In this document: piece by piece, positions 350 to 35,334 of the stretch | Numbering within the stretch: the first letter of the stretch is position 1 | How the letters are laid out: each line of letters begins with the position of its first letter | From: a virus | Lineage: Duplodnaviria > Heunggongvirae > Uroviricota > Caudoviricetes | IMG/VR virus record: IMGVR_UViG_2713896776_000008 | DNA: 35,334 nt | Direction: 5' to 3' (one strand) | Translations under genes and position numbers: made by a program | The notes under the pieces: generated by a model | The model's input: the letters and a program-made list of their open reading frames with translations, nothing else | Database searches by the model: none | Told to the model about the DNA's origin: nothing

Positions 350-739
350 TTAGCTATTTTCCACCTTCTCTGAATCAGAGTCACCATCAAACAGTTTGCC
401 CTGCATCCGATCCAATTCTTCTTTTCTGACCCGCTTCACCACGCTGTAAACCCACTGTAGTGAAACACCGAATTTGCGGGCCAGTTCGTGATGGTTGCGT
501 CCGTCAAACTCCAGGAATATTTCCCGGTCGCGCTGACTGACCTTCCAGACCATGCCCATCGGAAAATAGACGTTTTGCCCACCCCAGACCTGCATCATGC
601 GGTTCGCGACGGCCTGACCAATCTGGTCGGCAACTGCGGGTTCGATATCAATAATCTCGCGGACGGTCTCAGAGGTATGCTGTGCCAGTTCTACCAACAG
701 TTCCGGCCCTTTACTACGAAACTGATTCAGGTCGCTCAT
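350..739 (-). CDS. mor: Mor/C-family transcriptional activator (middle/late activator), 129 aa
   Basis: ATG at 739 preceded by GGGAGTGA; GGQxVYxP...GRNhhELarkfGVS...VYsvvKRvR pattern typical of the Mor family; position downstream of gemA-like gene as in Mu. Confidence 0.8.
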   Translation of the reverse strand: MSDLNQFRSKGPELLVELAQHTSETVREIIDIEPAVADQIGQAVANRMMQVWGGQNVYFPMGMVWKVSQRDREIFLEFDGRNHHELARKFGVSLQWVYSVVKRVRKEELDRMQGKLFDGDSDSEKVENS

Positions 740-1164
740 TGCTTCACTCCCGCAGCTCTGCGCTGCCACTTCTTCAGTTTCTCAATCACGCTACTTGCCT
801 GCTCATTGCTGAGCCAGCGTAACGCGCTGATGCCTGTTTCCCGTTTAACCCACAGCGCCAGCGCCTGCTCTGAACTGTCTCGGACGATGCCTGCGGCAGC
901 CATTTCAAGCCATAGCGCACGGATTTTCTTTGACTGCGGATGACTATCCAGCGGTAAGCCGGACTTGGCTTTCCCGGCAGGCTTAATGCGAAAGCCTTTA
1001 TTTTTCATGGATTCCAGCACGCGGTTTAGCTGTGGGGTATCCATCCCTTTGGTTGAGGCTTTGCCGGTCAGCCCCTGTAGCATCTGGCGGTAGGTGTCCT
1101 CATCCATCTGGAGGTCATTGCGGGCAATATGGATGAGTTGAATAAGACGCTGCTTAGTCATCAT
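736..1164 (-). CDS. gemA: GemA-like regulatory protein (Mu gp16 family, DUF1018)
   Basis: MMTKQRLIQLIHIARNDLQMDEDTYRQMLQGLTGKAS... signature; AAGGAG upstream of ATG at 1164; stop overlaps mor start. Confidence 0.7.
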   Translation of the reverse strand: MMTKQRLIQLIHIARNDLQMDEDTYRQMLQGLTGKASTKGMDTPQLNRVLESMKNKGFRIKPAGKAKSGLPLDSHPQSKKIRALWLEMAAAGIVRDSSEQALALWVKRETGISALRWLSNEQASSVIEKLKKWQRRAAGVKQ

Positions 1165-1369
1165 CGTCGCTCCTTTTACCTGCGCCACCGATATAATCGA
1201 CATATAAAGGAAGCGCAACAGGCCAGCACATGAACATAACGGCCCAACTGATCCAGTGTCCGGCACCGCTGTAACGTGAGTAAAAACCTGAGCGGCGGTG
1301 CAGTTCAGCAGTACACCACCCCACGAGACCATACCAGAACAGGGCACATACAATTGATTCAGCCATCAT
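1154..1369 (-). CDS. small hydrophobic (probably 2-TM) protein, unknown function
   Basis: In-frame ATG pair at 1369/1366 in ORF 1154-1483; hydrophobic segments ESIVCALFWYGLVGW and WISWAVMFMCWPVALPLY; overlaps neighbours by a few nt (operon packing). Confidence 0.4.
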   Translation of the reverse strand: MMAESIVCALFWYGLVGWCTAELHRRSGFYSRYSGAGHWISWAVMFMCWPVALPLYVDYIGGAGKRSDDDD

Positions 1370-3720: not shown

Positions 3721-4887
3721 TTAAACTCCTTTGACGACGTCGGCGTTGACCTGCGGAACCCCGATTTCAGCAGCCAGATTCATGGCGGCTATCACCAGGT
3801 TACTGACGGCCAGCGGATACAGCAGGCTGACCATGCTTTTACGGTTGCTGCCCAGATTGCTCAGACGGGCGCGGATGGCTTCCACTGCGCTGGCGTCCAT
3901 GATGTCAGACAGCTGCTTACCGGCGCGTTGCAGTTTGAACGTCAGAAACTCTTCGAGGCTGTTGTCCAGCGGCAGCAGTTCAACCACCTCGCAGCGCTGG
4001 ACGACCTCACGGACTTCCATGTTGCGTTCGGACAGTTTGTCCGCCAGCTCAGGCTGGCCAATCAGCACGATGGACAGCAGTTTTTTGAAGCCGGATTCCA
4101 GCTCAAAGAAGCGTTTGAGGTGCTTCAGCGTCGGAATGGGCAGACTGTGGGCCTCCTCAATCACCAGAACGTGGCTGAAACCCGCCTGACTGCTGTCCTT
4201 CAGGACGCGGTGCAACTGGCGGAAACGGGCGTCCTGGCTGCGTTTGATACTCTCCAGCGGCGCGATGGTGCTGATGATGGCCTCGGCGATAGCTGCCGCC
4301 TTCAGGGTTTTGCCCTTCACGTCGTTGTCTTCCATGGCGATGATGTATGGCTCGATAACAATCACCGGCGCGTTCTCGCGGTTGACGCGTTCAATCAGGT
4401 CGCGGCGCAGCGTGGATTTACCCGCACCGGACTCGCCGATAACCGCCAGAAAGCCACCGTGGCGGGCGGTCTGGAACAGCGCCTCACGCACGTAGCGGAT
4501 ATCCGGCGTGGTGAACACATCGTCCGCGCCCTGCATGGCTTCATCGGCGAACGGGTCACGGAAAAGACCAAACGCTTTTTTGGTTGCTGGAAATAACACC
4601 TGCTTTTTGAGTAACATGTTCTCTTCCTCACTGAGGTTGGTTTTATCGGTAGTACCCGCTGTACGGGGTGTGACAGCGCCCTGTGCAGCATCAAAACTTT
4701 TCGCTGTATCAATCCCCTTACTTTCCAGATACAACGCCAGACGCTGGCGTACCTCTTCGGGGCTGGTGCGGGGCCACTCGTTATGGTTCACAATCTGGGC
4801 CAGCGTGGCCTCGGAAACGGCGACGGCTCTTGCCACCGCCGCCTGCGGGATGCGGGCCTCTTTCAGTTGTTGCTTCAGTACCAGCAT
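3721..4887 (-). CDS. DNA transposition protein B-like AAA+ ATPase (target DNA activator)
   Basis: Walker A AVIGESGAGKST, N-terminal HTH-like segment, Walker B-like hVLVIEEAH; GGAGG RBS; directly downstream of transposase as in Mu A-B. Confidence 0.85.
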   Translation of the reverse strand: MLVLKQQLKEARIPQAAVARAVAVSEATLAQIVNHNEWPRTSPEEVRQRLALYLESKGIDTAKSFDAAQGAVTPRTAGTTDKTNLSEEENMLLKKQVLFPATKKAFGLFRDPFADEAMQGADDVFTTPDIRYVREALFQTARHGGFLAVIGESGAGKSTLRRDLIERVNRENAPVIVIEPYIIAMEDNDVKGKTLKAAAIAEAIISTIAPLESIKRSQDARFRQLHRVLKDSSQAGFSHVLVIEEAHSLPIPTLKHLKRFFELESGFKKLLSIVLIGQPELADKLSERNMEVREVVQRCEVVELLPLDNSLEEFLTFKLQRAGKQLSDIMDASAVEAIRARLSNLGSNRKSMVSLLYPLAVSNLVIAAMNLAAEIGVPQVNADVVKGV

Positions 4888-4897
4888 GCCTTCCTCC

Positions 4898-6667
4898 TCA
4901 GTTACCGTTAACGATGCTGATAACGCTGTTGCGGGCCGGAGTGGTCAGGGTGACCATGACCTCATCCAGAGCGGCTTCCGGTACGCCGTCCGGGTACTGT
5001 GCCGTTAACTGGCGGTAATGTTCCGGCGTCCAGATATGGCCGTTAGCGCCAAACTTCTCGCGCAGGGCTTTCGCCGCCTCCACATGGGTCAGCGGACGCT
5101 GCTCAATACGCGGCCCGCGCACGTCTGAAGCCTGACCGCGCTTCGGCATATAGGCCGGAAGCGTGGTGTCGTCGATATGTTTGTACGGGTCAAGTCGCCC
5201 GCCGAACGGCAGCGCCTTCGCCTTGCGTGCAGCAGCTGCATCGGTGGCGTTATCGGTGCCCGTAACCAGCTCTTCGATTTCTTTTGCCGCCGTCTGCGCC
5301 GGGGTCTCCGGCAGGGCTTTGTAGTTTTCGCCAAATACCGCCGCGCTTTCGGCAAAGCCGAACTCGTTCTTTCTGACCTCCTCGACCAGGAAGAACGTCT
5401 CGTGACCGTCCTCACCGGTCAGCACCACCTGCGCCACATCGCTGCGCCACGGGTTACGGGTAATCATCAGTTTTTCGCCGACCAGTACGCCCGGTACCGT
5501 CGAAACGTCAAACTCATTGCCCCGGAACGAGACGCGCAGTTTTGGTGTGACCTTACGGAGTTCCGGTGCGGCCACCGCCAGTTCGCGGCAAACCTCAACG
5601 GATGGCGCTTTTTTCAGCTGGTCAGCAGTAATCTTCAGCCAGATATCCGTGCGGGTTTTACCGTGGCGGCTGTGGACCGCCGTGGCGTTAAAGTGGCTGC
5701 GCCATTTCACCGCCAGTGCGTTCAGTTCGTCCAGGCTATGAACCGGCTGGAATTTGAGACCCGGCTCCAGTTTACGTTCGATAATGTCACGGGCCTTTTC
5801 CACCTGCCCGGTGGCGCGGGCGTTATGCGGCTTGTGCGCTATCAGATTGATGCCCAGCGAGCGGCACATGTTTTTCGTCATGCCAGCGGTGTTCGCCGAA
5901 CCGGGATCAAGGTAGAGTATTTTCGGCACGCCGTGCAGCACGTCCGCGCCGCCGCGCTCCTGCATGGCGTTGATAAGCACAGAACAGAGGTTCTCACCAG
6001 ATTCCGCACCCATCACGTACTCAACGTAAATCCAGCCGCTGGTATGGTCGGTAATCTCGTAACTCCACACGCGGTCACTGGCGATGCGGGCGATGTTGGC
6101 AGGCTTGTTCTTGTAGAACTTCGAGCTGTCCATCACCTGCAACCCTTTATGGCCGTTGCTCAGGTAGTAAAGCGTACAAAGTGAGGCATCAATCTCCCAG
6201 ACGTGATTGGGATGCAGGCTGGCCATCTCGGACGACGGGGCCGGTGCGTCAAGCTGTTCCGGGTGCAGACCATAGTTCCGCAGGGCGCGGCTGATGGTGT
6301 CCTCGGACAGCGGGAAAAACTCGCCTGTGGCCTCGTCCGTTCTGCCAGCAGTGATAAAGCCGTTTGACCGCAGGGTCTCCACCGCATCCGCGATGGAATA
6401 CAGGCGTTTACCGTTCTTACGGGTGGCCTCGCGCAGCGTGGCGGAGATCAGCGCGGCCTCGTCGCGGCTCAGGGCGCTGCGCCCGGCATCGGCGCGTTTT
6501 TTGCGTTTGTCAGTCACTGATACCTCCTTCAGCTTGCGCAGCAGGGTGGCGCGGGACATGCCCAGTTCAGCGCAGGCGGCGTCGTATATCGCACCGCGCT
6601 TACCATGCCCCGCGTCACGTGCCGCGCGGGCAACATAAACCAGTCGTTCAGTCAGGGCGGCACTCAT
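4898..6667 (-). CDS. Mu-type DDE transposase (A protein), 589 aa
   Basis: N-terminal HTH (GMSRATLLRKLKEV), central DDE/rve-like core (HVWEIDAS ... YLDPGSANT ...), GGAGG RBS, followed by B. Confidence 0.85.
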   Translation of the reverse strand: MSAALTERLVYVARAARDAGHGKRGAIYDAACAELGMSRATLLRKLKEVSVTDKRKKRADAGRSALSRDEAALISATLREATRKNGKRLYSIADAVETLRSNGFITAGRTDEATGEFFPLSEDTISRALRNYGLHPEQLDAPAPSSEMASLHPNHVWEIDASLCTLYYLSNGHKGLQVMDSSKFYKNKPANIARIASDRVWSYEITDHTSGWIYVEYVMGAESGENLCSVLINAMQERGGADVLHGVPKILYLDPGSANTAGMTKNMCRSLGINLIAHKPHNARATGQVEKARDIIERKLEPGLKFQPVHSLDELNALAVKWRSHFNATAVHSRHGKTRTDIWLKITADQLKKAPSVEVCRELAVAAPELRKVTPKLRVSFRGNEFDVSTVPGVLVGEKLMITRNPWRSDVAQVVLTGEDGHETFFLVEEVRKNEFGFAESAAVFGENYKALPETPAQTAAKEIEELVTGTDNATDAAAARKAKALPFGGRLDPYKHIDDTTLPAYMPKRGQASDVRGPRIEQRPLTHVEAAKALREKFGANGHIWTPEHYRQLTAQYPDGVPEAALDEVMVTLTTPARNSVISIVNGN

Positions 6668-9908: not shown

Positions 9909-10673
9909 TCAGAAATTGCATATCACAAGTTCCTGGCGCGGTGATGACTTACCCGACAGGCTGTAGTTGATGCAAACGGTCTGGATGTTGAGGCCTTTGA
10001 AAGCCTGCCTCATCTCTGGGATATCGTTCACCGATATAATCATTTTCCCTTTGATACTCCGCGCCAGTTCCGACATGTGGATATAGTTCCCTATTGGAAA
10101 ATCCACCCCATAGCCCTCTGTTCCCCAGTACGGTGGATCACAGTAGAACAGCGTATGCGGGCGATCATAACGCTCTATGCATTGGTGCCAGTCCAGATGC
10201 TCTATCAGCGTTCTGGACAGGCGCAGGTGTGCCATCGACAGTTCTTCTTCGATGCGCAGGAGGTTAAAGCGCGGCGCACTTGTGGTGGAGGTTCCGAACG
10301 AGTGATCGGCCACCTTGCCGCCAAACGCCTGTTTCTGCAGGTAGTAGAACCGGGCCGCCCGCTGAATGTCGGTGAGCGTTTCTTCCGGCGTATCCTGCAA
10401 CCATTTATAAATCTGACGGCTGACCAGCGCCCATTTGAACTGGCGAACAAATTCTTCCAGATGATGCTTGACCACCCGATAGAGGTTCACCAGCTCCCCG
10501 TTGATATCGTTAATGACTTCGGTCTTGCTGGGCGTCTTGAGAAAATAGAGCGCAGCTGCCCCGCAGAACGGCTCCACATAGCAGGTATGGGCCGGAAACA
10601 GCGGCAGAATATGTTTAGCCAGACGACGTTTGCCGCCAATCCATGGGACGATGGGTAAAGATTGTTCTTTCAT
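9909..10673 (-). CDS. Dam-like N6-adenine DNA methyltransferase (D12 class), orphan
   Basis: N-terminal PWIGGKRR...FCGAAALYF (AdoMet motif) and DPPY catalytic motif; ATG at 10673 (ORF track begins at TTG 10697). Confidence 0.8.
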   Translation of the reverse strand: MKEQSLPIVPWIGGKRRLAKHILPLFPAHTCYVEPFCGAAALYFLKTPSKTEVINDINGELVNLYRVVKHHLEEFVRQFKWALVSRQIYKWLQDTPEETLTDIQRAARFYYLQKQAFGGKVADHSFGTSTTSAPRFNLLRIEEELSMAHLRLSRTLIEHLDWHQCIERYDRPHTLFYCDPPYWGTEGYGVDFPIGNYIHMSELARSIKGKMIISVNDIPEMRQAFKGLNIQTVCINYSLSGKSSPRQELVICNF

Positions 10674-10714
10674 TATCCGTAAGCCTTTTGCAATCAATGA
10701 AAATATGGCAGGCT

Positions 10715-10808: not shown

Positions 10809-10861
10809 GTTCTTTCAAAGCCATCATGCGGTTCACGTCCGCATCCTCACTATTAACGCTG

Positions 10862-10899
10862 TTTAAAATCCCTTTCCCCGACCATTTGTGATGCTGTCT
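10862..10899 (+). promoter_or_regulatory. candidate late promoter element (weaker third copy of TTTAAWATC-N20-ATRCTGYCY motif) upstream of lysis operon
   Basis: TTTAAAATCCCTTTCCCCG ... ATGCTGTCT with the same 20-nt spacing as copies at 24459 and 30287. Confidence 0.35.
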
Positions 10900-10921
10900 C
10901 CACTACACAAGGAGACGCACC

Positions 10922-18109: not shown

Positions 18110-18153
18110 GTTTTGTCTCTACAGGCGGGTGATTTATCATTGCCAGCCGCTGA

Positions 18154-18189
18154 GGGGCTGTATTACCTTTATAAAGGCTTTACAGCCCC
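18154..18189 (+). other. nested stem-loop GGGGCTGTA-[tta CCTTTATAAAGG ctt]-TACAGCCCC downstream of G
   Basis: 9-bp perfect stem enclosing a 12-bp perfect palindrome; 45 nt after G stop; no U-run follows. Confidence 0.35.
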
Positions 18190-18323
18190 CGCTTTGCACC
18201 ACTATTCGCCTGCAGCGTGACATTCCCCGTACTGATACCCCCGATTTTTTCTAAAGCAGATTAAAAGCGCCGCTGACGCTTTTTCCACAGACTGTCCCCG
18301 ACAACGTAACGCGGGACAGCAAA

Positions 18324-24423: not shown

Positions 24424-24430
24424 TATCACA

Positions 24431-24456
24431 GGGGCTTCGGCCCCTTTCTTCTTAAT
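24431..24456 (+). terminator. rho-independent terminator GGGGCTTCGGCCCC + TTTCTTCTT
   Basis: Perfect 5-bp GC stem with TTCG tetraloop followed by a T-rich tract, 8 nt after the stop at 24423. Confidence 0.65.
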
Positions 24457-24458
24457 CC

Positions 24459-24498
24459 CCTTTAATATCCGTTCCCCGCGTCACCGGACATACTGCCC
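24459..24498 (+). promoter_or_regulatory. candidate late promoter: CCTTTAATATC-N20-ATACTGCCC upstream of chaperone/tape-measure operon
   Basis: Bipartite motif identical in sequence and spacing to the copy at 30287-30326; a CATACT -10-like hexamer would give a short leader containing AGGAG. Confidence 0.5.
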
Positions 24499-24515
24499 TG
24501 AACTTACACAGGAGC

Positions 24516-24836
24516 ATGAACATGTCACAGGTACAACTCGAAGTATTTATTCCGGCCTATCCATTCACGACCGCTGTCGGAACGCGTATTGAGCGCATTG
24601 AACTCAAGCGTCTGACTGTTAAGGACCTGAAGCAGGTTCGAAAAACCTCTAAAGACCCGGCTGACTGGGACGAACCGCTGATTGCCCGCAGTACCGGCCT
24701 GCTCCCGGAGGACCTGGATAATATGGACCTGGCTGATTATCTGGAGCTGCAGAAACGATTTCAGCAAGTCACTGGGCTGGGCAAGAGCGACGAAAACGCT
24801 GATGCAGGCGCAGGGTCTCCTGGCGAGGTGGTTTAG
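24516..24836 (+). CDS. tail assembly chaperone (P2 gpE / Mu gp41-like)
   Basis: 106 aa immediately upstream of tape-measure gene; overlapping +1-frame ORF extends past its stop. Confidence 0.6.
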   Translation: MNMSQVQLEVFIPAYPFTTAVGTRIERIELKRLTVKDLKQVRKTSKDPADWDEPLIARSTGLLPEDLDNMDLADYLELQKRFQQVTGLGKSDENADAGAGSPGEVV

Positions 24837-28605: not shown

Positions 28606-29762
28606 ACAGCACTGCACAGGTCGCATCAGCGTTAACCGGCGTCAGCGATGTTCTGAGTCCGGTGTTCACGCTGTGGTATCTGCAGAAGAACATCACCACC
28701 GATATCGCCCCCTATGTCACCCGCGTAACCTACAGCGATAACATCAAAAGCGAGTCCGATACCATTGAGGTGGAGCTGGACGACACCGATGGCCGCTGGC
28801 TGGATAAGTGGTATCCGGGCAAGGGTGACACGCTGACGCTGAAAATGGGTTATCAGGGCGAGAAGCTGCTGTCCTGTGGTACGTTCTCGATAGACGAGAT
28901 CGAGGTGAGTTCGCCCGCGTCCGTTGTCGCTATCCGGGGCGTGGCCACGTCGGTCAACAACGCCCTGCGGACAAAATCCAGTCGTGGTTTCGAGAGCACC
29001 ACGCTGGCGGCTATAGCCGGACGGATTGCCAAAAAGCATCAGCTGAAGCTGGTTGGCAGTATTGAGTCCATCAAAATTGACCGGGTGACCCAGTATGCTG
29101 AAACGGACGTGGGCTTCCTGCGTCGACTGGCCAGCGAGTATGGTTATGCCGTGAAAGTGGTCAGCGACCAGCTGATTTTCTCTCATCTGGCCACGCTGCG
29201 CGATCAGGAGCCGGTAAAACAGTTGAAGCCACAGGATGTGGCCAGCTTTTCCCTGCGTGACACCATCAACCGCGTCTACAAATCCGCAAAGGTAAAACAC
29301 CAGAAGAGCAGCGATAAAAAGCTGATCGTCTACGAAGCTGATGGCGGTACCAGCGAAAGCGACAAACAAACCAAAGGCGGTAAGGTCACCAGTGCCGACT
29401 CACTGAAGGTCAACAGCCGCGTCAGTGATCCGGACAGCGCCCGGATTAAAGCAGATTCGGCGCTGGCCAGGCATAACGAATACCAGCAGAACGGCTCGCT
29501 GTCGCTGATGGGGACGCCTCAGTTGACTGCAGGCAACAAAATTGAACTGGTGGGTTTTGGTCAGTTATCCGGGCCATGGCTGATAACTACTGCCCGCCAT
29601 GCGTTTGACCGTAACAGCGGCTACATCACCGAACTGGAAGTGGCACGAGGGCCGGTTACGCAGGGCAAAGCGAAGAAAGGTAAAAAGACCGGAAAAACCC
29701 AGACGCTGACCGTCTATAAACCGGACGGCAGCACGTCCACGGTAATAAAGGAGAAAAAATAA
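28593..29762 (+). CDS. baseplate hub / late control D-like protein (P2 gpD, Mu P-like)
   Basis: 389 aa; position and family resemblance. Confidence 0.7.
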   Translation: MAEINSTAQVASALTGVSDVLSPVFTLWYLQKNITTDIAPYVTRVTYSDNIKSESDTIEVELDDTDGRWLDKWYPGKGDTLTLKMGYQGEKLLSCGTFSIDEIEVSSPASVVAIRGVATSVNNALRTKSSRGFESTTLAAIAGRIAKKHQLKLVGSIESIKIDRVTQYAETDVGFLRRLASEYGYAVKVVSDQLIFSHLATLRDQEPVKQLKPQDVASFSLRDTINRVYKSAKVKHQKSSDKKLIVYEADGGTSESDKQTKGGKVTSADSLKVNSRVSDPDSARIKADSALARHNEYQQNGSLSLMGTPQLTAGNKIELVGFGQLSGPWLITTARHAFDRNSGYITELEVARGPVTQGKAKKGKKTGKTQTLTVYKPDGSTSTVIKEKK

Positions 29763-30274
29763 TGGCAGGCGTCACCCGTCAGGTCGGTACGGTCAGCGCC
29801 GTCGATGCCGACAAGGTTCAGGCCCGCGTTCGTCTGCCTGAGTGCGATAACCTGCGCACTAACTGGCTTAACGTACTGCAGCGCAACACCCAGGATAACA
29901 AGGATTACTGGCTACCTGACGTGGGGGAGCAGGTTGAGGTGCTGCTCGATGCCAACGGCGAGGATGGTGTCATTCTGGGCGCGGTGTATTCAGACGTCGA
30001 TAAGCCACCGTTCAGCGACAAAAACGTCCGGGGCACGAAATACGCGGATGGCGCAGAGTTCAGCTATAACCGCGCGACCCATACGCTGACGGTCAAAGGT
30101 GGTATCGAGCGCGTAGTAATCGAGGTTGCGGTAGGTATCAGCCTGAAGGGGAAAACCATTGATTTGACCGCTGACACCACCACGGTGAACGGCAACCTTG
30201 AAATCAACGGCAATGCCCACTCCACAGGCAGCATGCTCTCTGACGGCCAGAACTCCAATCATCACTCCCACTGA
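29762..30274 (+). CDS. baseplate spike (gpV-like)
   Basis: 170 aa, AAGGAG RBS; order hub-spike-W-J-I. Confidence 0.7.
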   Translation: MAGVTRQVGTVSAVDADKVQARVRLPECDNLRTNWLNVLQRNTQDNKDYWLPDVGEQVEVLLDANGEDGVILGAVYSDVDKPPFSDKNVRGTKYADGAEFSYNRATHTLTVKGGIERVVIEVAVGISLKGKTIDLTADTTTVNGNLEINGNAHSTGSMLSDGQNSNHHSH

Positions 30275-30286
30275 CCTTCTTAAACG

Positions 30287-30326
30287 CCTTTAATATCGGC
30301 GTTCCCGCACAGGGGCAATACTGCCC
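30287..30326 (+). promoter_or_regulatory. candidate late promoter: CCTTTAATATC-N20-ATACTGCCC ending 2 nt before the ATG of the gp25/W-like gene
   Basis: Same bipartite motif and spacing as 24459-24498; downstream gene has no SD. Confidence 0.5.
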
Positions 30327-30328
30327 CC

Positions 30329-30676
30329 ATGAAAACAACTTCCGTATTCTGGCAACCGGCCCTGCAGGCCCCTGGCGAAATCGTCCGGGGGCTGGATGAT
30401 ATCTGGCAGGCCATTCAAATCATCCTGCGAACTCCTCGCGGCAGCGACCCGCATCGCCCGGAGTTCGGCAGCAACCTGCATCTTTATATCGACTGGCCCA
30501 TCGACCGGGCTATCCCACATGTGGTGCGCGAGTCCGTTGATGCCATCCGGCGCTGGGAGCCTCGCTGCCAGCTTATGTCGGTTAAACCCGCCGTCGACGG
30601 TGAACATCTTACGCTCCGGGTGAGCTGGAAAGGCTCTGACGGACAGCCCCGGACTCAGGAGCTTTTATGGCGCTGA
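30329..30676 (+). CDS. baseplate wedge protein (gp25 / GPW-like)
   Basis: 115 aa with conserved family layout; ATG at 30329 with no SD. Confidence 0.7.
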   Translation: MKTTSVFWQPALQAPGEIVRGLDDIWQAIQIILRTPRGSDPHRPEFGSNLHLYIDWPIDRAIPHVVRESVDAIRRWEPRCQLMSVKPAVDGEHLTLRVSWKGSDGQPRTQELLWR

Positions 30677-31770
30677 CAGAACCCGATTTTATTGAACGCG
30701 ATGCCGACAAAATCACGGCTGAAATGATTGCTCAGTACGAAGCCGCAACCGGCAAGACGCTGTACCCCGCCCAGGCTGAGCGCCTGTTGATTGACCTGTG
30801 GGCATACCGCGAAATGCTGGTCAGGGTAGCGGCGCAGGAAGCGGCCAAACAGAATCTGGTCGCCTTTGCCCGTGAGCCGATGATTGATTACCTCGGTGAA
30901 CTGGTCGGTGTTTACCGCCTTGCCGCGCAGCCTGCCACCACCACTCTCCAGTTCTCCGTGGATGAGGCACTGGCCATTGATGTGCTGATTCCGGCAGGCA
31001 CCCGCGTCAGCGCTTCCGACAGCATTATTTTTGCCACCGATACGGACGTGGTGCTGAAAGCCGGATTGCTTCTGGTCAATGCCACGGCCACCTGTACCGA
31101 ACCGGGAGCCGCTGGCAATGGCTGGCAACCTGCGCAGGTCAGTCAGTTGCTCGATGAGATTGATAACGTCGACCTGCAGGTGACCAATCTGATGGCAAGT
31201 TCTGGCGGTTCAGAGCAGGAAGACAATGACAGGCTCCGCGAGCGTATCAAACTGGCCCCGGAGTCATTCACCAACGCCGGAAGCCGTATGGCATACCGCT
31301 TTCATGCCATGCAGGCCCATCCCAACATCGTCGACGTCGCTGTGCTCTCCCCGGTTCCCGGCACCGTAGAACTGTATCCGCTGCTCAGTACCGGCCTGCC
31401 GGAGGACAGCATCCTTACGCTGGTAGAGAGTTTCTGCTCGGACGAAAAAGTCAGGCCGCTCACTGACACCGTGCGGGCTAAAACACCTGTGCAGGTGGAT
31501 TACGCCATTGAAGCCAACATCACTATCTATCGTGATCAGGATGCCAACTCGATAAAGGACAACGCCAACAGCGCCATACAGAACTGGGTGGCGTCCCGTA
31601 CCGCCACGCTGGGGCGCGATATTGTCCCCAGTCAGATTATCAGCGTGCTGTCCGTTGCCGGAGTGTATCAGGTCGAACTGGTGACACCAGTGCTGAAGGT
31701 AGTGGCAGAAAACGAATGGGCAAACTGTACGGCGATCACTCTTAACATGACCGGGGTGTCCGATGGCTGA
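30667..31770 (+). CDS. baseplate J-like protein
   Basis: 367 aa; overlaps W-like stop; family resemblance. Confidence 0.75.
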   Translation: MALTEPDFIERDADKITAEMIAQYEAATGKTLYPAQAERLLIDLWAYREMLVRVAAQEAAKQNLVAFAREPMIDYLGELVGVYRLAAQPATTTLQFSVDEALAIDVLIPAGTRVSASDSIIFATDTDVVLKAGLLLVNATATCTEPGAAGNGWQPAQVSQLLDEIDNVDLQVTNLMASSGGSEQEDNDRLRERIKLAPESFTNAGSRMAYRFHAMQAHPNIVDVAVLSPVPGTVELYPLLSTGLPEDSILTLVESFCSDEKVRPLTDTVRAKTPVQVDYAIEANITIYRDQDANSIKDNANSAIQNWVASRTATLGRDIVPSQIISVLSVAGVYQVELVTPVLKVVAENEWANCTAITLNMTGVSDG

Positions 31771-32341
31771 GCCGCTACAACTCCCGCCACCGCTTGAGGG
31801 TGATATCAGTCTCAGAACGCTGGGAAGACTCGCCGGGCGGCTGGATAACATCGACCTGAGCGTACTGATGGTCTATCTCGTCGATATTGTCGACAGTTCC
31901 GCGCTGCCATGGCTGGGCGAGCAGTTCTCACTGTTCGGCGATGGCTGGGAGCTGGCGGAATCTGACGATGTACGCCGCATGCTTATCAAATCCGCTATCG
32001 AGCTGCACCGCTACAAAGGGACGCCGTGGTCAATCAGGGAAATTATCCGCCGTTTCGGCTTCGGCGAAGTGGATCTGATTGAAGGCACTGGCCAGATTGG
32101 CTACGACGGCAAACACACTTACAACGGGCTTTTCGTTCATGGCGATGCGGAAGCCTGGGCGGTATATCGCGTCATCCTTCAACAGCCCATCACTAACGAT
32201 CAGGCGGCGCTGTTACGCCAGACGCTCGCTGCTTTTGCTCCGGCCCGCTGCCATCTGGCAAGCCTGGAGTATCTGTCTGTCGCCATTCGCTACAACAACA
32301 CCGTCAACTATGACGGCAGCTATAACCACGGGAGCAGTTAA
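31763..32341 (+). CDS. tail protein I-like (baseplate/fibre-attachment protein)
   Basis: 192 aa following J, preceding tail fibre. Confidence 0.65.
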   Translation: MAEPLQLPPPLEGDISLRTLGRLAGRLDNIDLSVLMVYLVDIVDSSALPWLGEQFSLFGDGWELAESDDVRRMLIKSAIELHRYKGTPWSIREIIRRFGFGEVDLIEGTGQIGYDGKHTYNGLFVHGDAEAWAVYRVILQQPITNDQAALLRQTLAAFAPARCHLASLEYLSVAIRYNNTVNYDGSYNHGSS

Positions 32342-33327: not shown

Positions 33328-33930
33328 ATGGAACAGGCTATTTTGGGAAAAGACGGTTACGCTTTAAATGATGGGGAAATCATCGTACATAACTATGATG
33401 GCGAAACGCGGGAATATATTTCTACATCAACTGAATATCTCGCTGTCGGCGTCGGTATCCCGGCATGTTCCTGTCTGGATGCACCAGGTACACATAAAGC
33501 TGGTTATGCAATCTGTCGCTCTGTAGATTTAAATTCATGGGAATATGTGCCAGACCATCGCGGTGAAGTTGTCTATAGTACCGAAACGGGAGATACCAAA
33601 GAAATCACAGTTCCGGGTGATTACCCTGAAAATACAACCACTATCGCCCCATTAACGCCATACGATAAATGGGATGGTGAGAAATGGGTGACGGATACCG
33701 AGGCACAGCATAGCGCCGCACTAGACGCGGCAGAAGCACAGCGCCAGTCACTGATTAATGCAGCAATGGCTTCCATTAGTCTGATTCAGCTGAAATTACA
33801 GGCCGGACGGAAGTTGACGCAGGCAGAAACAACCCGACTTAACGCCGTGCTGGATTACATTGACGCGGTGACGGCAACAGATACCAGCACCGCGCCGGAT
33901 GTCATCTGGCCTGAACTGCCGGAGGAGTAG
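33328..33930 (+). CDS. tail fibre assembly chaperone (U-like)
   Basis: C-terminal LDYIDAVTATDTSTAPDVIWPELP motif typical of Tfa proteins; AT-rich. Confidence 0.75.
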   Translation: MEQAILGKDGYALNDGEIIVHNYDGETREYISTSTEYLAVGVGIPACSCLDAPGTHKAGYAICRSVDLNSWEYVPDHRGEVVYSTETGDTKEITVPGDYPENTTTIAPLTPYDKWDGEKWVTDTEAQHSAALDAAEAQRQSLINAAMASISLIQLKLQAGRKLTQAETTRLNAVLDYIDAVTATDTSTAPDVIWPELPEE

Positions 33931-34342
33931 GCCATTCAATATCTGGTGCACTGGAAGTATCGACCAGCTCCAGTGCGTCCAGATAATCCAGCCACAAATT
34001 ATATTGCGCCAGTTCCTCACCTTTCAGACGACCAATAGCCGCTTTACCAGCCCATTGTCTACTGTTCATATAATCGTTGGCCTGATTAATCAATTGCTGC
34101 TTTTTAGTTTCGGCTGATGCAATTTGTTCTTCACGTGTTGGCGGTGGAACATCTGCCCATGCTGGCATTCCATCGTCTCCGGTAATTCTGTACTTACCGT
34201 CAGGCGGCGTATCATGGAAATATTCCCTGAAAATAGCTTCGTCTATATCCACGCCTTTACCTTCGGGCCATTGGCCTTTTGCAGCGTAAACAGACTGGAG
34301 GGCATAAGGGTACGCCAGATTATCAACATACAAATATTTCAT
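33902..34342 (-). CDS. alternative tail fibre assembly chaperone (U'-like)
   Basis: C-terminal LDYLDALELVDTSSAPDIEWPTPP motif; convergent with U, 3' ends overlap 29 bp. Confidence 0.7.
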   Translation of the reverse strand: MKYLYVDNLAYPYALQSVYAAKGQWPEGKGVDIDEAIFREYFHDTPPDGKYRITGDDGMPAWADVPPPTREEQIASAETKKQQLINQANDYMNSRQWAGKAAIGRLKGEELAQYNLWLDYLDALELVDTSSAPDIEWPTPPAVQAR

Positions 34343-34344
34343 AA

Positions 34345-34704
34345 TTAACGCCCTTTCGCGTAGAAGGCTCCACCTTCAAAGCCATAGTTACAATGAGCAA
34401 CGAAACCTGTTTTCGTCCAGTTAGTTGCGCCCCACATATTCCCACCACCAAAACCGCCGTCATATACAATCACTACGTCTGGCTCCTGCGTAAAAGGAAT
34501 GGTGAAAGTCACATTTGTAGATACCGCCGCGGCGTTATTCGGGAAATTAATTCTTCCCCACTGCTCAATTGAACCATCAGGCAATTTTTGCCAGCCAGAT
34601 CCTGATGAATAAGCTGACATATCAGGTATCTGATTTTCCCCTGTTCCCACATTCCGTTTTGCCGCTTCTCCCAAACCAAGGTTTTTGGAAAAGCAGTTAC
34701 ACAT
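34345..34704 (-). CDS. alternative tail-fibre C-terminal segment (S'v), promoterless cassette joined to the constant part after inversion
   Basis: ORF contains the same gix-encoded KNLGLGE heptapeptide near its 5' end; Gly-rich distal domain differs from the current Sv. Confidence 0.65.
   Translation of the reverse strand: MCNCFSKNLGLGEAAKRNVGTGENQIPDMSAYSSGSGWQKLPDGSIEQWGRINFPNNAAAVSTNVTFTIPFTQEPDVVIVYDGGFGGGNMWGATNWTKTGFVAHCNYGFEGGAFYAKGR
34666..34691. repeat. gix/hix-like recombination site (right), inverted copy
   Basis: TTCTCCCAAACCAAGGTTTTTGGAAA; reverse complement matches the left site at 24/26 positions. Confidence 0.65.
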
Positions 34705-34752
34705 AGAGAAATCTGCAAAAATCCTCCCACTATGATGTGAAGGAGGAAATTG

Positions 34753-35334
34753 ATGGCCGTTATTGGTTATATCCGCGTATCAACAATCGACCAGAACAGC
34801 GATTTGCAGCGTAATGCACTCACAAGCGCAAACTGTGACCGCATTTTTGAAGACCGTATGAGTGGAAAAGTTGCCAGTCGCCCTGGTCTTAAAGGCGCTT
34901 TAAAGTGCATTAATAGCGGAGACACCCTGGTAGTGTGGAAACTGGACAGGCTGGGACGTAGCGTTAAGAACCTGATTGCACTCATATCAGAGTTACATGA
35001 ACGTGGTGCCCACTTCCGCTCTTTAACAGACAGTATTGATACCAGCACTGCCATGGGGCGCTTCTTTTTCCATGTAATGTCGGCATTGGCGGAGATGGAG
35101 CGCGAGCTAATTGTCGAACGGACACTGGCCGGGCTGGCAGCAGCCAGAGCACAGGGACGCGTAGGTGGAAGGCCCAACGCATTAAAAACCCATGAGCGAG
35201 AGCAGATTGGGCGGCTATTGACGAAGGGGCACACCCGCCAGCAGCTGGCAATTATCTACGGTGTAGGGTTATCGACGCTTTACCGATACTTTCCGGTGGA
35301 TGGTCATAGGAAGGATAACGCAGCAGGAATGTAA
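34753..35334 (+). CDS. gin: Gin/Hin/Pin-family serine DNA invertase
   Basis: N-terminal resolvase catalytic region GYIRVSTIDQNSDLQRNAL with active-site Ser, DRLGRS motif, C-terminal HTH; AGGAGG RBS; adjacent to invertible segment. Confidence 0.9.
   Translation: MAVIGYIRVSTIDQNSDLQRNALTSANCDRIFEDRMSGKVASRPGLKGALKCINSGDTLVVWKLDRLGRSVKNLIALISELHERGAHFRSLTDSIDTSTAMGRFFFHVMSALAEMERELIVERTLAGLAAARAQGRVGGRPNALKTHEREQIGRLLTKGHTRQQLAIIYGVGLSTLYRYFPVDGHRKDNAAGM

Follow-up and report, generated by a model that had tools for sequence, protein, structure and literature searches.

The baseplate wedge gene W of the prophage described here begins at an ATG with no Shine-Dalgarno (SD) sequence at functional spacing, and the question that this locus raises is how the gene is transcribed and how its translation is started. 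The window, meaning the whole stretch of 35,334 nucleotides that was analysed, is a Mu-like transposable prophage of the BcepMu type. Over the 2.8 kb that was queried (29000-31800), its identity is 95.6% to Klebsiella phage KP12 and 88.5% to Escherichia phage PhiKM, a member of Bcepmuvirus. The early operon and the late genes are encoded on opposite strands (Table 1), and the baseplate spike gene V is the final gene of the transcription unit that lies upstream of W. The Mor-family protein of the early operon exhibits 30-34% identity with Mu Mor and Mu C and is presumed from its sequence to be the activator of four late promoters.

The region 33902-35334 contains two ORFs in opposite orientation (33902-34342 and 34345-34704) that adjoin a DNA-invertase gene, which begins at 34750 on the plus strand and is named from the annotation of KP12. 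The KP12 counterpart of the first of these ORFs is annotated as a tail fibre. The adjoining invertase gene and the opposite orientation of the ORFs, one of them tail fibre-like, are suggestive of an invertible segment for host range like the G segment of Mu.

Table 1. Features of the window around gene W, the copies of the late-promoter motif and the ORFs inserted between V and W in related loci.
Feature	Position	Strand	Details
Mor/C-family transcription activator gene	350-769	-	Early operon; Pfam PF08765 Mor, E=1.3e-42
GemA	736-1353	-	Early operon
AAA ATPase	3721-4887	-	Early operon
rve transposase	4898-6667	-	Early operon
Late genes	from 10922	+	Begin with holin
Motif copy, lysis	10853-10902	+	TTAA 10853-56, TTAA 10863-66, GATGCT 10890-95; next six GTCTCC; predicted +1 A 10902; 20-nt leader, AGGAG 10910-14, ATG 10922
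Motif copy, head	18251-18301	+	CTAA 18251-54, TTAA 18261-64, CAGACT 18288-93; next six GTCCCC; predicted +1 G/A 18300-01; 24-nt leader, weak GGGA only, ATG 18324
Intrinsic-terminator-like hairpin AGGGGCTTCGGCCCCT and T-run	24430-24445	+	Directly upstream of the chaperone promoter copy
Motif copy, tail chaperone/tape-measure	24452-24501	+	TTAA 24452-55, TTAA 24462-65, CATACT 24489-94; next six GCCCTG; predicted +1 A 24501; leader 15 or 21 nt, AGGAG 24510-14
Baseplate spike gene V	29762-30274	+	Phage_base_V; stop TGA 30272-74
Motif copy, W	from 30280	+	AATACT; next six GCCCCC; predicted +1 A 30329; no leader
TTAA-N6-TTAA dyad, proposed Mor-family binding site	30280-30293	+	Centre -42.5 relative to 30329
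Spacer	30294-30316	+	23 nt; no -35 match; length fixed and sequence variable in relatives
Inverted repeat GGGGCA/TGCCCC	30312-30327	+	Brackets the hexamer; hairpin GGGGCA-ATAC-TGCCCC
Predicted -10 hexamer AATACT	30317-30322	+	A at position 2 and T at position 6 invariant
Discriminator GCCCCC	30323-30328	+	C-rich; no purine beyond the first G
Baseplate wedge gene W	30329-30676	+	GPW_gp25; ATG is the predicted transcript +1
Gene J	30667-31770	+	After W on the predicted leaderless transcript; own GGAG, spacing 4
Inserted DpnII/MboI-type ORF, locus L033	2050-2922		Between V and W
Inserted DpnII/MboI-type ORF, locus L106	9007-9924		Between V and W
Inserted DpnII/MboI-type ORF, locus L089	5930-6649		Broken by an IS

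The sequence from 30287 to 30331 reads CCTTTAATATCGGCGTTCCCGCACAGGGGCAATACTGCCCCCATG, in which the hexamer AATACT is followed by GCCCCC and then directly by the ATG (30329-30331). After the in-frame stop TAA (30281-30283), the earliest ATG, GTG or TTG is the one at 30329, and the N-terminal residues SVFWQPAL of the W protein are kept as far as its Pseudomonas and Burkholderia homologues; 30329 is therefore taken to be the real start of W. GTG and TTG starts occur among the other listed ORFs of the window; W starts with ATG, and the 3' end of W is overlapped by the start of J. An alternative W start upstream or downstream was rejected on the in-frame TAA, the absence of an intervening start codon and the conserved N-terminus. 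A small upstream ORF ending in an ATGA overlap was also rejected, since the TAA at 30291-30293 is not followed by any start codon in its frame, as was read-through of the V stop codon into W, which lies in the same frame, owing to a second in-frame stop.

A scan of the late genes for pairing with the anti-SD sequence found no SD at functional spacing upstream of W. The best pairing is formed by AGGGG (30311-30315, -5.7 kcal/mol), which is 12-13 nt from the ATG and sits within the 5' arm of a 6-bp hairpin. In the same scan, V has a GGAG of -8.7 at a spacing of 7, and the GGAG of J scores -6.6. The statement of the earlier note that W has no SD is correct for usable spacing, but this distant G-run is present. 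The absent SD accounts for the missing signal at W in gene callers and SD-based start predictors.

The gap between V and W is best explained, on its sequence, as holding an internal late promoter, P(W), that would be of the Mor/C type, activator-dependent and recognised by sigma-70. This promoter is one copy of a motif with the consensus [C/T]TAA-N6-TTAA-N23-nAnnCT-N6-purine, also written [C/T]TAA-N6-TTA[A/C]-N23-nAnnnT, which was defined by reading the intergenic gaps and then by pattern scans of the window. The window contains four copies with an identical spacing of 23 nt, all on the plus strand and each in a gap that precedes a block of late genes. The composite pattern occurs four times, whereas mononucleotide shuffles give it 0.055 times on average and once at most, and the pattern TTTAAWATC-N20-ANNCTG occurs three times against none in 100 shuffles; both patterns are post hoc and derived from the same copies that were counted, so the independent support is conservation in relatives. 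That the motif and the lack of an SD are a chance resemblance without function is extremely improbable. Patterns defined after the copies have been seen, and short A/T-rich boxes that are common in intergenic DNA, would make such a resemblance easier to come by, but it is opposed by the identical spacing of four copies against the shuffled expectation and by the retention of the arrangement across Enterobacterales, Pseudomonas and Burkholderia while the spacer drifts. P(W) is very probably a real promoter.

A motif with copies at 24459 and at W had been described in the earlier note. The motif is real but wider than it was described, with the TTAA-N6-TTAA dyad upstream, and although both copies stand, those at 18251 and 10853 had been missed. 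The W and chaperone copies form a 51-nt direct repeat (family D2) that is 71% identical ungapped, and the claim that the copy at 24459 leaves a short leader with AGGAG is borne out by this repeat and by the AGGAG before the chaperone ATGs. These ATGs are in frame at 24516 and 24522, and ATG 24522 is the likelier start because it is 7 nt from the AGGAG against 1 nt for ATG 24516. The leaders of the lysis and chaperone copies are similar in sequence (ACTACACAAGGAG and ACTTACACAGGAG, respectively), and the W copy reads as the same module as the other copies with its leader removed.

Several other sequence features were observed at these copies. The hexamer of the lysis copy has TGT before it, which is extended -10-like. 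The spacer of the head copy contains a terminator-like hairpin (AAAAGCG..CGCTTTT), and a larger hairpin is present upstream of this copy near 18150-18197. At the chaperone copy, the T-run TTCTTCTTAA of the hairpin at 24430-24445 overlaps the first TTAA box.

The position of the predicted start follows from the spacing. The bases most critical to the recognition of a -10 element by sigma-70 are A-11 and T-7, at hexamer positions 2 and 6, and a pyrimidine at -1 with a purine at +1 is the favoured transcription start. In the other three copies too, the hexamer is followed by a G-pyrimidine-rich hexanucleotide and then by a purine. As GCCCCC has no purine beyond its first G, the first favoured start base of the W copy is the A at 30329, which is the seventh base after the hexamer and the A of the ATG, and the C before it completes the pyrimidine(-1)/purine(+1) pair. 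A sigma-70 consensus scan found no -35/-10 pair at any motif copy; this null result is expected of activator-dependent promoters and so is not evidence against one.

The proposed mechanism begins with a Mor-family protein, which would bind TTAA-N6-TTAA, a 10-bp repeat, near -42.5 and would replace the missing -35 element. RNA polymerase would use the hexamer AATACT (30317-30322) and, from the geometry, would start on the first favoured purine 7 nt past it, the A of the W ATG. The resulting W-J-I-H transcript would have no 5' leader, and the ribosome and initiator tRNA would bind the 5'-terminal AUG directly, with J and the later genes using the SD sequences of their own that are seen in the sequence. 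The first 28 nt or so of the predicted W RNA are unpaired in the centroid fold. Given that P(W) is a real promoter, its start likely lies at the W ATG or no more than 2 nt from it. The proposal that AATACT is a -10 element with transcription starting at the W ATG, made in the earlier note, holds in every prediction that it makes at the level of sequence, and the 6-8 nt between hexamer and ATG are kept in relatives.

The loci compared were 45 from one-genome-per-species contigs and 80 from IMG/VR, plus annotated phages. At all 128 of the 128 loci that retain the region, the hexamer-to-ATG gap is 6-8 nt, the start codon is ATG and a well-spaced SD is never present. Among the loci tabulated there are 63 unique upstream sequences, and 45 are unique over -48..+6. 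The gap is likewise 6-8 nt in 23 of 23 lineage representatives, being 6 nt in most lineages, 7 nt in some Photorhabdus, L108, Komp_PAO1_1 and L046, and 8 nt in the Pectobacterium type, where the hexamer is GACAAT by the 23-nt rule. An alignment of 35 distinct sequences has invariant columns at TTTA..A of the box, at hexamer positions 2, 4 and 6 and at the ATG; the spacer is free in sequence and fixed in length.

The arrangement extends to more distant phages. Upstream of W, BcepMu has TTAG..TTAA-23-CAACAT-GGCCGC-ATG, and box-23-hexamer-N6/7-ATG also precedes W in phiE255, Pseudomonas phage Komp_PAO1_1 and two Pseudomonas genomes. In Salmonella, box-23-GAAAAT-N6-ATG stands before the W homologue at a locus homologous to STM4203, which belongs to a phage-tail-like chromosomal cluster on a Salmonella Infantis contig (L134) homologous to STM4201-STM4204 of S. 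Typhimurium LT2. KP12 and PhiKM retain all four motif copies, and Pectobacterium-type loci (L125-127, approximately 77% identical) retain three, including those of the chaperone and W.

No terminator was found between V and W in the window by a terminator scan, so read-through polycistronic RNA must also cover W. On read-through RNA from the promoter at 24452, the W AUG would have no usable SD and would lie 1 nt past a GC hairpin, and W would probably be poorly translated. An unlikely alternative is that W is nevertheless translated mainly from such polycistronic mRNA of the upstream promoter and that any P(W) is secondary, with initiation through AGGGG as a long-spaced SD, by S1-assisted entry or by scanning past the V stop. 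It would draw on the missing terminator, on the pairing of AGGGG with the anti-SD and on the conserved hairpin described below, which suggests that RNA spanning the region matters. In Enterobacterales a conserved, nearly invariant G-run lies 11-14 nt upstream of the W ATG and could serve as a weak SD at long spacing. However, a spacing of 12-13 nt is beyond the efficient range, the G-run of the window is sequestered in the hairpin stem and Pseudomonas relatives have no G-run at that place. The V stop is 54 nt from W in the window; in several relatives it is 0.3-2.4 kb off, or a reverse gene or terminator lies between, and the W-proximal sequence is unchanged. Translation from read-through mRNA also leaves unexplained why the hexamer keeps its invariant A and T and stands at a constant distance of 6-8 nt from the ATG.

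Foreign genes between V and W in relatives are always located upstream of the motif. In L033-35 and L106 the insert is an ORF of 290-305 aa whose product has a restriction endonuclease domain of the DpnII/MboI type (PF18742, E about 1e-45), and in L089 this ORF is broken by an IS encoding HTH_Tnp_1 and rve ORFs. The window encodes a D12-class adenine methyltransferase (9909-10697, minus strand), which together with the DpnII/MboI-type ORF of the relatives might represent a GATC-directed defence or self-protection system. In Pectobacterium betavasculorum (L043), an AT-rich ORF of 88 codons with a strong SD and no Pfam match lies between V and W on the minus strand (2659-2925), and its transcription would diverge from the W promoter. 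Komp_PAO1_1 has a 9-bp terminator-like hairpin inside the promoter spacer. With such inserted genes and this hairpin, W cannot easily depend on read-through from V in those relatives, and they argue that W is independent of coupling to V. The V-W junction is in practice a transcription-unit boundary and a site where moron genes accumulate.

The -10 hexamer is bracketed by an inverted repeat; AATACT had been placed correctly in the earlier note and the repeat around it was missed. The hairpin formed by this repeat alone has a value of -11.3, and the two-hairpin fold of 86 nt has an MFE of -19.4 with a z of -2.9. The first hairpin of this fold (AACGCC/GGCGTT, 30283-30303) was rejected as a conserved structure, being 52% paired in relatives. 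For the second hairpin (30312-30327), 86% of cells in the alignment are paired and two pairs are changed on both sides, with several G-C to G-U changes in relatives. Its role as an intrinsic terminator was rejected, as the stem has no U-run, is followed by CAUGAAAACAAC and was negative in the terminator scan. A search of Rfam gave no match at E<=1 in 30100-30500.

Equivalent repeats of other sequence are found in the Pectobacterium type (GGGGGC/GCCCCC) and BcepMu (GCGGC/GCCGC). Lonsdalea, Pseudomonas and some Photorhabdus have at most a weak repeat and still keep hexamer-N6-ATG, and the other three motif copies have no inverted repeat. Because the predicted +1 is downstream of both arms, the hairpin would form only in read-through RNA, in which it ends 1 nt before the AUG. 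The conservation of the repeat hints, at the level of sequence, at a function in RNA spanning the region, which is to say in read-through transcripts.

It is quite unlikely that the repeat itself is the functional element and that the promoter-like spacing is incidental. The repeat could then act as an RNA hairpin for a trans-acting factor on W translation, for which Com of Mu, which acts on mom mRNA, is a model, or as an operator in the DNA at which a dimeric repressor would cover the -10. The extent of pairing in the alignment, the two pairs changed on both sides and the equivalents of different sequence are consistent with such a role, but the relatives that keep hexamer-N6-ATG with a weak or absent repeat and the three copies without one are not, and neither an Rfam match nor a candidate binding protein was found. 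A doubtful further possibility, which combines the repeat with P(W), is a switch by transcript origin, in which the hairpin would silence W on read-through RNA and the P(W) RNA, having neither arm, would expose a 5'-terminal AUG. If this switch is true, firing of the internal promoter would by itself determine W output, and one stretch of DNA would act as the core of a promoter and, once transcribed, as a lock on translation. BcepMu-type phages of beta- and gamma-proteobacteria would then share this design as a conserved feature.

The imperfect dyad to which Mor/C activators are reported to bind spans two adjacent major grooves and is located directly upstream of a poor -35 (bioRxiv 10.1101/2025.05.02.651988). 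The TTAA-N6-TTAA sequence fits this described dyad. The window contains the further features of Mor/C promoters, namely an activator gene, -10 elements without -35 elements and several copies before late operons, together with an imperfect dyad immediately 5' of where a -35 would lie, which is a match at the sequence level only. Phage Mu (Pm, Plys, PI, PP, Pmom) is similar in its Mor-family activator, four late promoters, missing -35 and upstream dyad. The Mu record, which cites PMID 2522923 for them, has four annotated late promoters, of which PP is internal to gene N and ahead of the baseplate genes, much as P(W) lies within the tail/baseplate cluster. At Plys and PP, ATAAYCCCG starts 28 nt before the hexamer, which is a comparable box-to-hexamer geometry. 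The Mu record also has a predicted terminator inside the Mor-dependent Pm; hairpins likewise overlap promoters here, and the terminator-promoter overlap at 24430-24455 resembles the one annotated at Pm. Unlike the window, Mu has a different box sequence, none of its late promoters that were read abuts a start codon, and its W homologue gp46, for which an RBS is annotated, overlaps gp45. Sequence homology of the Mu C box to the window box was rejected, geometry alone being common to both.

A second comparison is with phage P2, in which the Ogr-type activator motif is TGT-N12-ACA. The P2 record (GenBank AF063097) has a TSS annotated at 10308, which is the first base of the V coding sequence. The P_V promoter of P2 resembles P(W) as an activator-dependent late promoter heading a baseplate/tail-fibre operon (V-W-J-I-H-G) of a P2-type tail module, and the window has homologues of the genes W, J, I and H that follow in P2. 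The two differ in that P2 uses an Ogr-type activator with a site annotated at 10239-10266, whereas the window has the Mor/C family and TTAA-N6-TTAA; the P2 operon begins with V and the predicted operon of the window one gene later, with W; and the promoter of the window is inside a longer gene string and does not follow a terminator. The only late-activator candidate found in the window belongs to the Mor family, and the box is unlike the P2 P_V region. Since P2 uses a different activator, the window is analogous to the P2 promoter family without belonging to it.

The lambda cI (P_RM) and Tn1721 tetR mRNAs are the naturally leaderless controls in PMC4965119. As predicted for the W mRNA, their AUG is 5'-terminal, no SD precedes it and the -10 ends within a few nt of the start codon. 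Their products are regulators made at low levels, from promoters that are constitutive or autoregulated, whereas W would be a structural late gene heading a multigene operon.

Features of leaderless genes found at W are a -10 approximately 6-8 nt upstream, an AUG start and no SD at functional spacing. Efficient leaderless initiation in E. coli needs AUG; leaderless translation in E. coli is inefficient, which counts against this reading of W, as does a canonical +1 that would leave a 2-nt leader in the Pectobacterium type. In the dRNA-seq table of B. cenocepacia J2315, the late genes of the BcepMu prophage are silent and no late TSS is present, including at W, as expected of a quiescent lysogen. 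No description of a leaderless W or of a late promoter of Mu-like/BcepMu phages was found in the literature. The suggestion of the earlier note that W is translated from a leaderless mRNA is supported by the comparison of relatives and by the analogy with gene V of P2, and on these grounds a leaderless mRNA is somewhat favoured as the main route to W protein.

Few mRNAs of gamma-proteobacteria are leaderless, and the products of the textbook cases are regulators. A phage late mRNA without a leader is already known from P2 gene V; what is added here is the prediction of one at a Mor/C-type promoter. If true, W would be a leaderless example from a structural late operon, conserved in BcepMu-type phages and related prophages or phage-tail-like clusters of Enterobacterales, Pseudomonas and Burkholderia. 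Its confirmation would mean that the arrangement at P2 gene V has an independent counterpart on a different activator family, and the consensus [C/T]TAA-N6-TTAA-N23-nAnnCT could be used for annotating the late transcription units of a widespread prophage group. W would also provide a natural test bed for leaderless translation that sets the output of a structural protein.
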